Positions 3,960-51,580 of a DNA stretch of 64,000 nucleotides are shown here, piece by piece. The position numbers and the translations under genes were made by a program. The stretch's first letter is position 1, and each line of letters opens with the position of its first letter. The notes beneath the pieces are model-generated. The model searched no databases. It was not told the DNA's origin and was given only the letters and a program-made list of their open reading frames with translations. Source of the stretch: Escherichia coli (GTDB taxonomy: Bacteria > Pseudomonadota > Gammaproteobacteria > Enterobacterales > Enterobacteriaceae); the NCBI RefSeq assembly GCF_002854065.1, contig NZ_CP024147.1, one strand, 5' to 3'.

Positions 3960-4766
3960 ATGAAATTTGTCTCTTTTAATATCAACGGCCTGCGCGCCAG
4001 ACCCCACCAGCTTGAAGCCATCGTCGAAAAGCACCAACCGGATGTGATTGGCCTGCAGGAGACAAAAGTTCATGACGATATGTTTCCGCTCGAAGAGGTG
4101 GCGAAGCTCGGCTACAACGTGTTTTATCACGGGCAGAAAGGCCATTATGGCGTGGCGCTGCTGACCAAAGAGACGCCGATTGCCGTGCGTCGCGGCTTTC
4201 CCGGTGACGACGAAGAGGCGCAGCGGCGGATTATTATGGCGGAAATCCCCTCACCGCTGGGTAATGTCACCGTGATCAACGGTTACTTCCCGCAGGGTGA
4301 AAGCCGCGACCATCCGATAAAATTCCCGGCAAAAGCGCAGTTTTATCAGAACCTGCAAAACTACCTGGAAACCGAACTCAAGCGTGAAAATCCGGTGCTG
4401 ATTATGGGCGATATGAATATCAGTCCTGGCGACCTGGATATTGGCATTGGCGAAGAGAACCGTAAGCGCTGGCTGCGTACCGGAAAATGTTCTTTCCTTC
4501 CGGAGGAACGCGAATGGATGGAGAGACTGATGAGCTGGGGATTGGTTGATACCTTCCGCCATGCGAATCCCCAAACAGCAGATCGTTTCTCATGGTTTGA
4601 TTACCGCTCAAAAGGTTTTGACGATAACCGTGGTCTGCGCATCGACCTGCTGCTCGCCAGCCAACCGCTGGCAGAATGTTGCGTAGAAACCGGCATCGAC
4701 TATGAAATCCGCAGCATGGAAAAACCGTCCGATCACGCCCCCGTCTGGGCGACCTTCCGCCGCTAA
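3960..4766 (+). CDS. xthA: exodeoxyribonuclease III (268 aa)
   Basis: [36 protein letters not shown]... within ORF 3948..4766; start taken at the internal ATG giving 268 aa. Confidence 0.9.
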
Positions 4767-30112: not shown

Positions 30113-31156
30113 TTAATCGCTAATCTTAATAACGCCTTTAATAATGTCGCGTTTGTTGTTAACTGACTCTTCAAATGCCTGTTGTACATCCCGATAATCG
30201 TAAATATGCGTCACCATCGATTTCACATCGAATCGCCCTGAAGAAATAGCTTCAATCGTGACCGGATAACGATTGGCATAGCGGAATACCGTCTGGATAG
30301 TGACTTCACGATTTATTTTGAGGAAATTGATTGCCGAATCGCCGGGTACAGTACCAACAATCATAATTTTACCGCCGCGCATTACCAGATAAGGTGCCTG
30401 TTTAACGGTGACCGCAGAACCCGCTGTTTCGAAAACAACATCTGCGCCCATGTCTTCGGTAAATTGCTGACAGCGTGCAATAGTGTCTTCTTTTGCGCCG
30501 TTAATAACCACTGTCGCACCAAGCTGTTCCGCCATTGCCAGACGTTTTTCCAGCACATCAACGACGGCAATTTCCGTTGCTCCCAGGCATTTGCACGCTT
30601 GCAACGTCATCAAACCAATACAACCTGATCCCAGAATAATTATCTTCTTACCCGGTTTAACATCTGCCAGCATCGCGGCATGCATCCCGACTGCGGCAGG
30701 CTCCACCAGCGCCCCTTCCATCGTGTCCATATTGTCGGGCAGTTTGTAAGTAAAGCTCTCCGGATGACACAGATAGTGCGTTAATGCGCCGCGGTAGTTG
30801 GGTTGTGTCGCCATAAAATCAACGTCCGGGCAGATGTTATATTTGCCTTCCAGACAGTAACGACAGTGACCGCAAGGAACGCCAGGTTCGATATTTACCC
30901 GATCCCCCGTTTTAAATTTGCGCACGCGGCTTCCCACAGCCACAACCGTCCCGGCGCATTCATGACCCAGGCCAATTTCTTGATTTGGGTCTTTAGGCGG
31001 AATAAACGGACCTGATTCAAAACCATGTACATCTGAACCACAAATACCGACATATTCTACTTTAATCAAAACTTCATCTTCTTTAGGCACTGGTATTTCT
31101 GCTGAAATAATTTTCATTGTGCCCGGCACCTGCAATATTGCTTTTGAATTTTTCAT
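30113..31156 (-). CDS. ydjJ: Zn-dependent alcohol/polyol dehydrogenase (347 aa)
   Basis: GHECAG catalytic Zn motif, structural Zn Cys cluster (CGHCRYC), GxGxxG NAD site. Confidence 0.85.
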   Translation of the reverse strand: MKNSKAILQVPGTMKIISAEIPVPKEDEVLIKVEYVGICGSDVHGFESGPFIPPKDPNQEIGLGHECAGTVVAVGSRVRKFKTGDRVNIEPGVPCGHCRYCLEGKYNICPDVDFMATQPNYRGALTHYLCHPESFTYKLPDNMDTMEGALVEPAAVGMHAAMLADVKPGKKIIILGSGCIGLMTLQACKCLGATEIAVVDVLEKRLAMAEQLGATVVINGAKEDTIARCQQFTEDMGADVVFETAGSAVTVKQAPYLVMRGGKIMIVGTVPGDSAINFLKINREVTIQTVFRYANRYPVTIEAISSGRFDVKSMVTHIYDYRDVQQAFEESVNNKRDIIKGVIKISD

Positions 31157-46403: not shown

Positions 46404-46508
46404 CTAGCCTGTCCGTTCAATAAGCAGAACGGACAAAACCAGCACAACCGCAATGGCAAAAAACGATGACGTGATAATCAGTGTCTCGACGAACATTTGA
46501 TCGTTCAT
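46404..46508 (-). CDS. yoaI: small membrane protein (34 aa)
   Basis: Reverse strand ATG at 46506-46508: [34 protein letters not shown]; abuts yeaK stop. Confidence 0.6.
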
Positions 46509-50040: not shown

Positions 50041-51066
50041 GTGTCAGATCAGATTATCGCCCGCGTCTCGCAATCCCTTGCCAAAGAACAGTCACTGGAA
50101 AGTCTGGTCCGACAGCTTCTGGAGATGCTGGAAATGGTCACTGATATGGAATCAACCTACCTGACCAAAGTGGATGTCGAAGCGCGCCTGCAGCATATTA
50201 TGTTTGCCCGTAACAGCCAGAAAATGCACATCCCGGAGAATTTTACCGTCTCGTGGGATTACTCGTTATGCAAACGCGCCATTGATGAAAACTGCTTTTT
50301 CAGCGATGAAGTCCCTGACCGTTGGGGCGACTGTATTGCGGCACGCAATCTTGGCATCACCACATTTCTGAGCACGCCAATTCACTTACCGGATGGATCA
50401 TTCTATGGCACGCTTTGCGCCGCCAGCAGTGAGAAGCGCCAGTGGAGTGAACGCGCGGAACAGGTTTTACAGTTATTCGCCGGACTGATTGCACAATATA
50501 TTCAAAAAGAGGCATTGGTTGAACAGCTGCGCGAAGCTAATGCTGCGCTGATTGCGCAATCGTATACCGACTCGTTAACCGGGCTACCGAATCGGCGGGC
50601 GATTTTTGAAAATCTGACGACGCTGTTTTCCCTCGCCCGGCATCTTAACCATAAGATAATGATCGCGTTTATCGATCTGGATAACTTCAAATTAATCAAT
50701 GATCGTTTTGGTCATAATAGTGGCGATCTGTTTCTCATTCAGGTTGGCGAGCGCCTTAATACGCTCCAGCAAAATGGCGAAGTTATTGGTCGTCTCGGTG
50801 GTGATGAGTTTTTGGTTGTTTCACTAAACAACGAGAATGCGGATATTTCGTCGCTGCGAGAACGTATTCAACAGCAAATACGTGGAGAATATCACTTAGG
50901 TGATGTTGATTTGTATTATCCCGGTGCCAGTCTTGGCATAGTAGAAGTCGATCCTGAAACGACCGATGCAGACAGTGCCCTGTATGCTGCCGATATCGCG
51001 ATGTATCAGGAGAAAAAACACAAACAGAAAACACCTTTTGTCGCGCATCCAGCGCTACATTCCTGA
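50041..51066 (+). CDS. yeaP: GAF-GGDEF diguanylate cyclase (341 aa), GTG start
   Basis: ORF 49912..51066; annotated-length start at GTG 50041 (VSDQIIARVSQ); intact GGDEF (GRLGGDEFLVV). Confidence 0.8.
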   Translation: MSDQIIARVSQSLAKEQSLESLVRQLLEMLEMVTDMESTYLTKVDVEARLQHIMFARNSQKMHIPENFTVSWDYSLCKRAIDENCFFSDEVPDRWGDCIAARNLGITTFLSTPIHLPDGSFYGTLCAASSEKRQWSERAEQVLQLFAGLIAQYIQKEALVEQLREANAALIAQSYTDSLTGLPNRRAIFENLTTLFSLARHLNHKIMIAFIDLDNFKLINDRFGHNSGDLFLIQVGERLNTLQQNGEVIGRLGGDEFLVVSLNNENADISSLRERIQQQIRGEYHLGDVDLYYPGASLGIVEVDPETTDADSALYAADIAMYQEKKHKQKTPFVAHPALHS

Positions 51067-51098
51067 GGCGTATTCACATCCTTTTGATTGGTGATAAC

Positions 51099-51197
51099 AT
51101 GCGAATCGGTATTATTTTTCCGGTTGTAATCTTCATTACAGCGGTCGTATTTTTAGCATGGTTTTTTATTGGCGGCTATGCTGCCCCGGGAGCATAA
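51099..51197 (+). CDS. yoaK: small hydrophobic protein (32 aa)
   Basis: MRIGIIFPVVIFITAVVFLAWFFIGGYAAPGA*; single TM helix. Confidence 0.5.
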   Translation: MRIGIIFPVVIFITAVVFLAWFFIGGYAAPGA

Positions 51198-51199
51198 AG

Positions 51200-51274
51200 A
51201 TGAAAAAAACAACGATTATTATGATGGGTGTGGCGATTATTGTCGTACTCGGCACTGAGCTGGGATGGTGGTAA
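51200..51274 (+). CDS. yoaJ: small hydrophobic protein (24 aa)
   Basis: MKKTTIIMMGVAIIVVLGTELGWW*; 2 nt after yoaK stop. Confidence 0.5.
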   Translation: MKKTTIIMMGVAIIVVLGTELGWW

Positions 51275-51331
51275 CGTCACCTCTAAAAATAGCAAAGGCT
51301 GCCTGTGTGCAGCCTTTGTGCAATTTAAGCG

Positions 51332-51580
51332 TTAACTTTTAATCTTCCTGTAGATAAATAGCACGACAATCGCACCAATAACGGCAACCACGAAGCTGCC
51401 AAAATTGAAGCCATCAACTTTACCAAAGCCAAACAGCGTGCTGATCCATCCGCCGACTACGGCACCGACTATCCCCAGCAGGATAGTCATAAAGAATCCA
51501 CCACCATCTTTACCTGGCATGATCCACTTCGCCAGAATACCGGCAATAAGCCCAAAAATAATCCATGACAGAATGCCCAT
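51332..51580 (-). CDS. yeaQ: GlsB/YeaQ/YmgE-family small membrane protein (82 aa)
   Basis: ORF track; Gly-rich two-helix pattern. Confidence 0.8.
   Translation of the reverse strand: MGILSWIIFGLIAGILAKWIMPGKDGGGFFMTILLGIVGAVVGGWISTLFGFGKVDGFNFGSFVVAVIGAIVVLFIYRKIKS

Follow-up and report, generated by a model that had tools for sequence, protein, structure and literature searches.

The small membrane protein genes yoaK and yoaJ of Escherichia coli and the relatives of YoaK in lambdoid prophages

The yoaK-yoaJ locus and its products

We analyzed a stretch of 64,000 nucleotides from Escherichia coli (hereafter, the window), in which two very short genes, yoaK and yoaJ, lie back to back between dgcP (also called yeaP) and yeaQ, and a third, yoaI, lies in the same region (Table 1). 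In the initial annotation, the pair was described from the letters of the sequence as two micro-ORFs in this position. Our direct reading and the ORF list showed that its coordinates, codon counts and 2-nt gap are exact to the base, and the RefSeq annotation agrees with the placement between yeaP and yeaQ. The local RefSeq gene order is dgcJ, yeaK and yoaI, then yeaL, nimR, nimT, yeaO and yoaF, and then dgcP, yoaK, yoaJ and yeaQ. The distance from the dgcP stop codon to the yoaK start codon, read directly in the window, is 32 nt.

Table 1. Features at and near the yoaK-yoaJ locus, in window coordinates
Feature	Position	Strand	Description	Basis
yoaI	46404-46508	-	34 codons; stop directly adjoins that of yeaK, which is on the opposite strand	RefSeq; NCBIfam NF041475
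dgcP (yeaP)	50041..51066	+	soluble GAF-GGDEF diguanylate cyclase; first gene of the dgcP-yoaK-yoaJ unit	RefSeq; Pfam GAF_2 + GGDEF
Shine-Dalgarno-like GGTGAT for yoaK	51090..51095	+	3 nt 5' of the yoaK ATG	direct reading
yoaK	51099-51197	+	ATG at 51099, TAA at 51195-51197; 32 codons plus TAA; product MRIGIIFPVVIFITAVVFLAWFFIGGYAAPGA	direct reading and ORF list
Shine-Dalgarno GGGAG for yoaJ	51188..51192	+	inside yoaK codons Pro30-Gly31-Ala32; 7 nt 5' of the yoaJ ATG	
yoaK-yoaJ gap	51198-51199	+	2 nt, 'AG'	
yoaJ	51200-51274	+	ATG at 51200, TAA at 51272-51274; 24 codons plus TAA; product MKKTTIIMMGVAIIVVLGTELGWW	direct reading and ORF list
GC-rich hairpin	51292..51319	both	between the convergent yoaJ and yeaQ	terminator scan and RNA folding
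yeaQ	51332..51580	-	convergent neighbour; GlsB/YeaQ/YmgE family membrane protein; landmark outside the unit	

Each of the three small proteins has one membrane-length hydrophobic stretch, with best 19-residue Kyte-Doolittle means of 2.79 (YoaK), 1.95 (YoaJ) and 2.72 (YoaI), and this supports the single transmembrane helix that had been predicted for each ORF of the pair. Across the six frames of the whole window, 320 ORFs of 20-40 aa start with ATG, and only two of these reach a Kyte-Doolittle mean of 2.0.

An RNA-seq study has called yeaP-yoaK-yoaJ an operon (PMC4620388), and vegetative sigma-70 controls DgcP, which is relatively abundant (PMC5635695). Our sigma-70 scan gave no convincing internal promoter for yoaK between dgcP and yoaK; the single plus-strand match has a -10 element that overlaps the yoaK start codon, and the match count was below that expected by chance. 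The hairpin that follows yoaJ folds with -21.7 kcal/mol on the plus strand (z = -4.2) and -20.1 kcal/mol on the minus strand (z = -2.9), and it has a good T-run on the minus (yeaQ) side only. It is probably a two-way intrinsic terminator common to yoaJ and yeaQ.

It is virtually certain that the two ORFs are the known, catalogued E. coli genes yoaK and yoaJ, and that these are real genes. The YoaK product is identical to the UniRef record 'Uncharacterized membrane protein YoaK', the window ORF being the E. coli type member, and the YoaJ product is identical to UniProt YOAJ_ECOLI, with 24 residues ending in GWW. The NCBIfam equivalog NF033821 (YoaK) matched residues 1-32 of 32 with 69.1 bits against a cut-off of 32, and NF011343 (YoaJ) matched with 60.4 bits against a cut-off of 54. 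Based on RefSeq, the exact sequence records and these NCBIfam scores, the two ORFs can be named yoaK and yoaJ outright, rather than 'yoaK-like' and 'yoaJ-like' as before, and the 'yoaI-like' ORF is likewise exactly yoaI. We found no family for YoaK or YoaJ in the Pfam copy searched, in PHROGs or in PADLOC; a newer family label, PF28021, is given to YoaK in the precomputed Pfam matches of public contigs. The family motif M[RK][IL]G..FP..[IV][FI][IV].A[VI].[FL][LM].WF[FIV].GGYA.P is present in the window YoaK, and the motif M[KR]K[TS]T..M...A.....G[TS][QE][LF]GWW is kept in the window YoaJ. Compared with the YoaK family, the window ORF is the same throughout, including the core FP...A....WF..GGYA.P and the length of about 32 aa; compared with YoaJ, it is the same in sequence, motif and place after yoaK, and we observed no difference in either case. 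YoaK and YoaJ show no detectable relationship to each other, and the idea that they are paralogues was therefore rejected.

The locus belongs to the E. coli chromosome, and the window copy of yoaK is outside any prophage. At least 80% of a 751-base stretch around the ORFs is carried at 95-100% identity by 5402 of 5426 complete E. coli genomes, and a 264-base core also occurs in 5402 of 5426 (99.6%), with no obvious inactivation. Both genes were annotated in all 29 full-length E. coli genome rows taken as an evenly spaced sample of the ranking, which contradicts the earlier remark that such small genes are easily missed. The finding itself is not new: it consists of three annotated small-protein genes, and YoaK and YoaJ have been detected experimentally.

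Translation of YoaK was reportedly first described in 2008. According to 10.1101/511675, quoting Hemm 2008/2010, YoaK and YoaJ first came to light through comparative genomics and models of ribosome-binding sites, and both were detected with chromosomal tags; in the same paper, tagged chromosomal YoaK stands at the lower end of abundance among the first-found small proteins, and accumulation of the tagged proteins is described both during growth and in stationary phase. YoaJ was experimentally confirmed to be a type II (Nin-Cout) inner-membrane protein (Fontaine 2011, as quoted in PMC4597795), and its N-terminal Lys-Lys agrees with this topology. An HA-MBP-YoaJ fusion is integrally membrane-associated, and YoaJ co-precipitates with the intramembrane protease RseP (PMC4597795). 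Both proteins are class II (assay-dependent) substrates of RseP; YoaK is predicted to be single-spanning and is cleaved in some assays (PMC10470546). In addition, YoaJ has been employed as a Nin-Cout periplasmic anchor tag (PMC7558204), and its level is raised by diamide treatment (PMC12542507). In M9 glucose, a strain from which the whole region had been deleted grew normally, with its fitness unchanged; the same report describes the functions of yoaK and yoaJ as unknown (PMC9769844).

The third gene, yoaI, had been placed by the initial annotation at exactly the position given in Table 1, abutting the yeaK stop on the opposite strand, and both our reading and RefSeq bear this out. NCBIfam NF041475 (YoaI) matched residues 1-34 of 34 with 79.8 bits against a cut-off of 45. 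Transcription of YoaI is induced by PhoR-PhoB, the protein activates EnvZ-OmpR, and it accumulates under low Mg2+ (PMC11429745; PMC12648545). The earlier statement that the functions of such proteins are mostly unknown therefore does not hold for YoaI, a published EnvZ activator (PMC11429745), but it does hold for YoaK and YoaJ (PMC9769844). YoaI, likewise a small inner-membrane protein, differs from YoaK and YoaJ in that its gene is a separate one, transcribed on its own at a distance of about 4.6 kb, and its sequence is unrelated to theirs.

Conservation and proposed translational coupling of the pair

For the comparative analysis, one genome per species was scanned with DgcP as bait, which gave 26 loci. 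A YoaK orthologue was found 34-58 nt past the DgcP match in 24 of them (Escherichia, Citrobacter, Enterobacter, Lelliottia and Pseudenterobacter), and a YoaJ orthologue was present in 25. In all 24 complete pairs, yoaK has exactly 32 codons and yoaJ exactly 24, with either 0 or 2 nt separating them. The length of YoaK is also 32 aa in Salmonella and is 33-34 aa in Klebsiella-like contigs; in the latter and in other contigs, the end of yoaK and the start of yoaJ form an ATGA or GTGA overlap or are separated by 1 nt. In every chromosomal locus examined, the junction from the yoaK stop to the yoaJ start thus falls between -4 and +2 nt.

The translation signals are conserved as well. In most of the 24 loci, a purine block of the GGTGA, GGTGG or GGGGA type lies 3-4 nt 5' of the yoaK start, the weakest blocks being GGTAAC (Pseudenterobacter) and GGGGAA (Lelliottia WAP21). 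The Shine-Dalgarno sequence of yoaJ lies within yoaK codons 30-32 as GGGAG, GGGGG or GGAG across the 24 loci, approximately 7 nt 5' of the start, and is weaker in Salmonella (GGGCG). The conserved spacing and the internal ribosome-binding site of the pair span at least seven genera or groups, including Salmonella and the Klebsiella-like contigs.

Nei-Gojobori counts were calculated over all distinct yoaK and all distinct yoaJ sequences. For yoaK, we obtained pS 0.61, pN 0.06 and a dN/dS of approximately 0.05, with variable columns at codon positions 1, 2 and 3 numbering 11, 9 and 31 of 33; for yoaJ, the values were pS 0.61, pN 0.17 and a dN/dS of approximately 0.15, with 14, 10 and 21 of 25 columns variable. 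In a 16-sequence family alignment of YoaK, M1, P8, A15, W21, F22 and Y27 are invariant and G4, F7, G26, A28 and P30 are nearly so, and in YoaJ, K3, T5, A12, G18, G22 and W24 are invariant, with W23 present in 25 of 26 distinct sequences. Between E. coli and Enterobacter, YoaK is far better conserved than DgcP (84-94% versus 68-70% identity). Given that length, frame and the pattern of third-codon-position variation are kept across genera, yoaK and yoaJ are more than chance ORFs, and the substitution patterns indicate that both truly encode proteins and are subject to strong purifying selection. The amino-acid conservation across Enterobacteriaceae that the initial annotation had proposed as a check is therefore present at the dN/dS values given above. 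It had also held that the genes should be doubted if they showed neither a translation signal nor such conservation; the published detection of the tagged proteins and the conservation across genera both speak for the genes.

The organization of the junction bears on how the two peptides would be made. Because the junction never falls outside the range of -4 to +2 nt and the last three codons of yoaK contain the Shine-Dalgarno sequence of yoaJ, we infer that yoaJ is translationally coupled to yoaK. The pair has the sequence features expected of a coupled pair, namely a close or overlapping stop and start, a ribosome-binding site in the upstream gene, and conservation of both across species. 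Ribosomes finishing yoaK would re-initiate on yoaJ, so that both peptides would be made together in a fixed ratio. The dual use of the 3' codons of yoaK, which would serve both as coding sequence and as the yoaJ site, may contribute to the strong conservation of Pro-Gly-Ala.

Both N-termini are predicted to be cytoplasmic, based on the basic residues Arg2 of YoaK and Lys2-Lys3 of YoaJ and on the published topology of YoaJ. The exposed parts would then be limited to 2-4 residues on the cytoplasmic side and 2-8 on the periplasmic side. With so few residues exposed, any activity would have to come from helix-helix contacts inside the bilayer. Similar small proteins with partners are known: MgrB-PhoQ, AcrZ-AcrB, CydX-CydAB and YoaI-EnvZ resemble YoaK and YoaJ in size, in having a single helix, in their inner-membrane location and in the near absence of a soluble part (PMC12648545). 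The likeness of YoaK and YoaJ to MgrB, AcrZ, CydX and YoaI, all of which have partners, is an analogy of mechanism without sequence similarity or membership. By this analogy, the helices of YoaK and YoaJ might pack against each other, against a larger inner-membrane protein, or against both; we consider this their likeliest mode of action, although the proposal is evenly balanced between being right and wrong. Each gene occurs without the other, YoaJ without YoaK in Kosakonia cowanii and 'Enterobacter sp. EA-1' and YoaK without YoaJ in phages, and an obligate YoaK-YoaJ heterodimer is therefore unlikely. Taken as a whole, the locus is very probably best explained as the known yoaK and yoaJ, genuine and putatively co-translated genes for one-helix peptides that would act within the bilayer.

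YoaK-type genes in phages and prophages

An exhaustive, profile-free search of 1.8 billion cluster representatives with YoaK gave 25 matches, several of which are frameshifted or over-extended gene calls. Two divergent members of 32-34 aa were located in lambdoid prophages, immediately 3' of a CI-type repressor (HTH_3 + Peptidase_S24). By tblastn against deposited phage genomes, we found a YoaK-type ORF in the Escherichia phages HK106, mEp234 and mEp506, in which no feature is annotated at that place, and another in the Klebsiella phage ST974-OXA48phi18.2, in which its annotation is that of a 39-aa 'CI transcriptional regulator'. The coordinates of the HK106/mEp234 ORF are 30467-30562 on the minus strand of NC_019768.1. 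For HK106, the curated record of the immunity region places the ORF (MRIGIVFPILVFIVAMGFMAWFIIDGYATPSG) 104 nt past cI and before hicA-hicB, inside the annotated unit that extends from pRM to the Timm terminator. In lambda, the equivalent slot of the cI operon is filled by rexAB. Phage YoaK thus shares with lambda rexA-rexB, and with the hicAB genes of HK106 and mEp234, the slot on the cI strand between cI and the Timm terminator, but lambda RexAB are much larger than phage YoaK and unrelated to it.

A scan of IMG/VR revealed at least 95 viral contigs with a member of the YoaK family. In 41 of the 54 loci with a phage-type yoaK, a same-strand ORF ends no more than 172 nt upstream; 26 representatives of these upstream ORFs were scanned, of which 24 contain HTH_3 and 21 contain Peptidase_S24. 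Records of phage-type YoaK also exist for more than 1000 Klebsiella pneumoniae contigs. Purifying selection acts on the phage copies as well, with a dN/dS of 0.12 and pairwise differences of 0.22, 0.15 and 0.57 at codon positions 1, 2 and 3, respectively. Following the phage copies of yoaK, we found no YoaJ-like ORF, and no YoaJ match was found in phage genomes. Separately, 24 viral contigs that end at the yoaK stop were first taken to represent phage cargo or an integration site; they proved to be provirus boundaries running into the host dgcP-yoaK, beside an integrase.

In bacterial genomes, for example in six E. coli genomes, on more than 1000 K. pneumoniae contigs and in Serratia and Cedecea, the prophage copies already bear the name 'YoaK family small membrane protein' from the NCBI pipeline, and the family assignment is therefore not new. 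In the literature searched, we found no paper linking YoaK to phages or prophages. Likewise, no PHROG family was found for YoaK, and at E <= 1 in PADLOC-DB v2 no defence model matched the chromosomal YoaK, three phage YoaK variants, YoaJ or YoaI.

The distribution of these genes indicates that neither YoaJ nor DgcP is needed for YoaK to work. The position of the prophage copies suggests a role that would be expressed in the lysogen, such as superinfection exclusion. We therefore considered the possibility that YoaK is first and foremost a mobile membrane peptide of the prophage type, expressed in lysogens, which would confer superinfection exclusion, defence or some other gain in lysogen fitness via a conserved inner-membrane target, and that the chromosomal copy is a fixed relative with the same activity. 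This is consistent with the intact YoaK-family ORFs of 31-34 codons that lie, with Shine-Dalgarno-like sites and on the repressor strand, just 3' of CI-type repressors in HK106, mEp234, mEp506, the Klebsiella phage and dozens of IMG/VR contigs, with the repressor domains of the ORFs upstream and the rexAB-like slot in HK106, and with the selection on the phage copies and their abundance in K. pneumoniae. However, position after CI shows the likely time of expression rather than the activity, the absence of any match to a PADLOC model, a PHROG family or a YoaK-phage paper in the collections searched counts against a prophage role, and the chromosomal yoaK forms a pair with yoaJ, a gene without phage relatives. 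On balance, we hold this reading to be possible but doubtful.

Alternative roles and significance

The conserved operon first raised the idea that the peptides serve DgcP, either as a membrane tether or by tuning local c-di-GMP, and that YoaK, YoaJ or both are dedicated partners of the cyclase, which would explain the shared operon. The regular order of the DgcP-anchored loci fits this idea, a dgcP orthologue preceding yoaK by 34-58 nt in 24 of 26 and yoaJ being present in 25 of 26. In Kosakonia cowanii and 'Enterobacter sp. EA-1', moreover, yoaJ lies between two GAF-GGDEF paralogues, and at one further locus a divergent yoaK also sits after a GGDEF gene. However, the strict test of co-occurrence with dgcP failed for yoaK and yoaJ in Salmonella, in Symbiopectobacterium and in phages. 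In Salmonella enterica, dgcP is entirely absent and the pair is intact at the same locus, in the order nimT, yeaO, yoaF, 196 nt, yoaK (32 codons), a 2-nt gap, yoaJ (24 codons, MRKTTMMLMGIALIAVLGTELGWW) and yeaQ; the Salmonella YoaK variant is present on more than 1000 recorded contigs. Conversely, Symbiopectobacterium has a dgcP orthologue without either small gene, and the phage copies of yoaK have no cyclase nearby. A tether is also difficult to reconcile with the proteins themselves, as DgcP consists only of GAF and GGDEF domains, with no transmembrane segment, and the peptides would show the cytoplasm only about 2-4 residues. Since Salmonella has the pair without dgcP, the pair is independent of the DgcP cyclase, and the idea was largely rejected on the basis of this locus; a dedicated partnership now appears improbable. 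Co-transcription with dgcP in E. coli looks like shared expression rather than shared function.

Small and very hydrophobic peptides of this kind also recall membrane-damaging type I toxins or holins, similar to Hok, Ibs or TisB, that would be mostly silent. The phage yoaK copies adjoin the hicAB toxin-antitoxin genes, and RseP, which cleaves YoaK and YoaJ in some assays, also detoxifies HokB (PMC10470546). Against this reading stand the co-transcription with a relatively abundant, vegetatively expressed cyclase (PMC4620388, PMC5635695), the accumulation of the tagged proteins in growing and stationary cells (10.1101/511675), the use of YoaJ as a benign production tag (PMC7558204) and the presence of the locus in 99.6% of E. 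coli genomes with no obvious inactivation. There is also neither an antisense RNA family nor a convincing antisense promoter at the locus: a Rfam scan gave no family at E <= 1, so that no type I antitoxin RNA was recognized, and the one minus-strand promoter-like match is within chance expectation (2 sites found versus 3.7 expected). We therefore consider a toxin or holin highly improbable. Finally, the notion that the ORFs are nonfunctional as proteins and that their translation serves only the mRNA, for example by keeping the 3' end of dgcP stable or by averting Rho termination, draws on the tiny size of the proteins and the lack of a known phenotype, but it is effectively refuted by the amino-acid-level constraint, that is, by dN/dS values of 0.05 and 0.15 with saturated synonymous change and by residues invariant across genera (P8, W21, F22 and Y27 in YoaK; K3, T5, A12, G18, G22 and W24 in YoaJ), and the pair is also kept in Salmonella, which lacks any dgcP mRNA for it to serve.

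As first noted, the yoaK-yoaJ pair is a rediscovery of annotated genes, which is ordinary and adds very little that is new. What our analysis adds is that Salmonella carries the pair without dgcP, and that YoaK frequently occurs by itself in the immunity region of lambdoid prophages, where several reference phage annotations lack it. Together, these two results narrow the hypotheses for the function of YoaK and YoaJ, and the phage lead is testable. Tentatively, and at a low level of confidence, we propose that YoaK is a portable one-helix module that temperate phages of enterobacteria would produce in lysogens from their repressor operon and that would act on a conserved inner-membrane component of the host, perhaps by blocking the DNA entry of other phages or by adjusting a membrane machine, and that chromosomal YoaK, paired and presumably co-translated with YoaJ, would be a fixed relative with the same job in the cell. 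If this proposal is true, then it would provide the first functional handle on the YoaK family.

YoaK-family ORFs in phages and viral contigs

A 32-codon YoaK-family ORF, which is unannotated, lies between the repressor gene cI and the toxin-antitoxin gene hicA in the lambdoid phages HK106, mEp234 and mEp506. In these phages it is preceded by a Shine-Dalgarno-like site and is enclosed by the pRM-to-Timm operon. The same ORF occurs in Klebsiella phage ST974-OXA48phi18.2 (retrieved locus L032, 2480-2599), where it is labelled 'CI transcriptional regulator'. We also found a YoaK-family ORF on dozens of IMG/VR viral contigs (L035-L088), with the match at approximately 2501-2596 in each, and these sequences fall into two subtypes, MRIGIAFP... 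and MKIGYLFP.... In the majority of these contigs, a CI-type repressor with an HTH or HTH plus S24 architecture is located directly upstream on the same strand, while in a minority (e.g., L038, L043 and L044) the YoaK-family ORF lies 531 nt from an opposite-strand ORF without a clear family.

A further 24 IMG/VR contigs (L090-L113; mostly about 38 kb, some only 7-20 kb) carry a host-type yoaK. All 24 terminate exactly at the yoaK stop codon, and their gene order is a tyrosine integrase, then a dgcP orthologue encoding a GAF-GGDEF protein, then yoaK. This arrangement resembles a provirus whose boundary was drawn too far out, into the host dgcP-yoaK region, more than it resembles phage cargo; the overshoot may be due to YoaK scoring as viral.

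Coordinates of yoaK, yoaJ and associated features in the retrieved loci
Feature	Source	Coordinates	Strand
yoaK	Salmonella enterica	L118 3001-3099	
yoaJ	Salmonella enterica	L118 3102-3176	
YoaK-family ORF	Phage HK106 immunity region (EF120461.1)	L033 1562-1660	
YoaK-family ORF	NC_019768.1	30467-30562 (= L031 2501-2599)	minus
Tyrosine integrase	IMG/VR contig	L093 134-1168	

Arrangements of yoaK and yoaJ in bacterial genomes

Over window positions 51067-51330, K-12 MG1655 (NZ_CP010443.1) shows 99.6% alignment identity and differs in length by one base. Strains 100416 and CUWW06 are identical to the window over the 751 bases tested; the window strain is not K-12. In Salmonella enterica (L118 2805-3240), both genes are intact between yoaF and yeaQ and dgcP is missing; a search of the 196 nt upstream of yoaK found no consensus sigma-70 promoter. 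Kosakonia cowanii (L023, ~4030-4210) and 'Enterobacter sp. EA-1' (L027, ~4124-4200) possess yoaJ without yoaK. In both, yoaJ has a dgcP orthologue on one side and another GAF-GGDEF paralogue on the other, and in L027 the stop codon of the upstream cyclase overlaps the yoaJ start.

The yoaK-yoaJ junction

The protein P0002 is a 57-aa YoaK::YoaJ fusion produced by a frameshift of one base close to the stop codon of yoaK. Because it derives from a single 1-kb Logan contig, an error in sequencing or assembly is its probable origin, and a natural fusion is unlikely. At window positions 51188-51197, the yoaJ ribosome-binding site, GGGAG, is formed by the three codons (Pro-Gly-Ala) that precede the yoaK stop. 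Two overlapping constraints may therefore explain why the C-terminus of YoaK is almost invariant.
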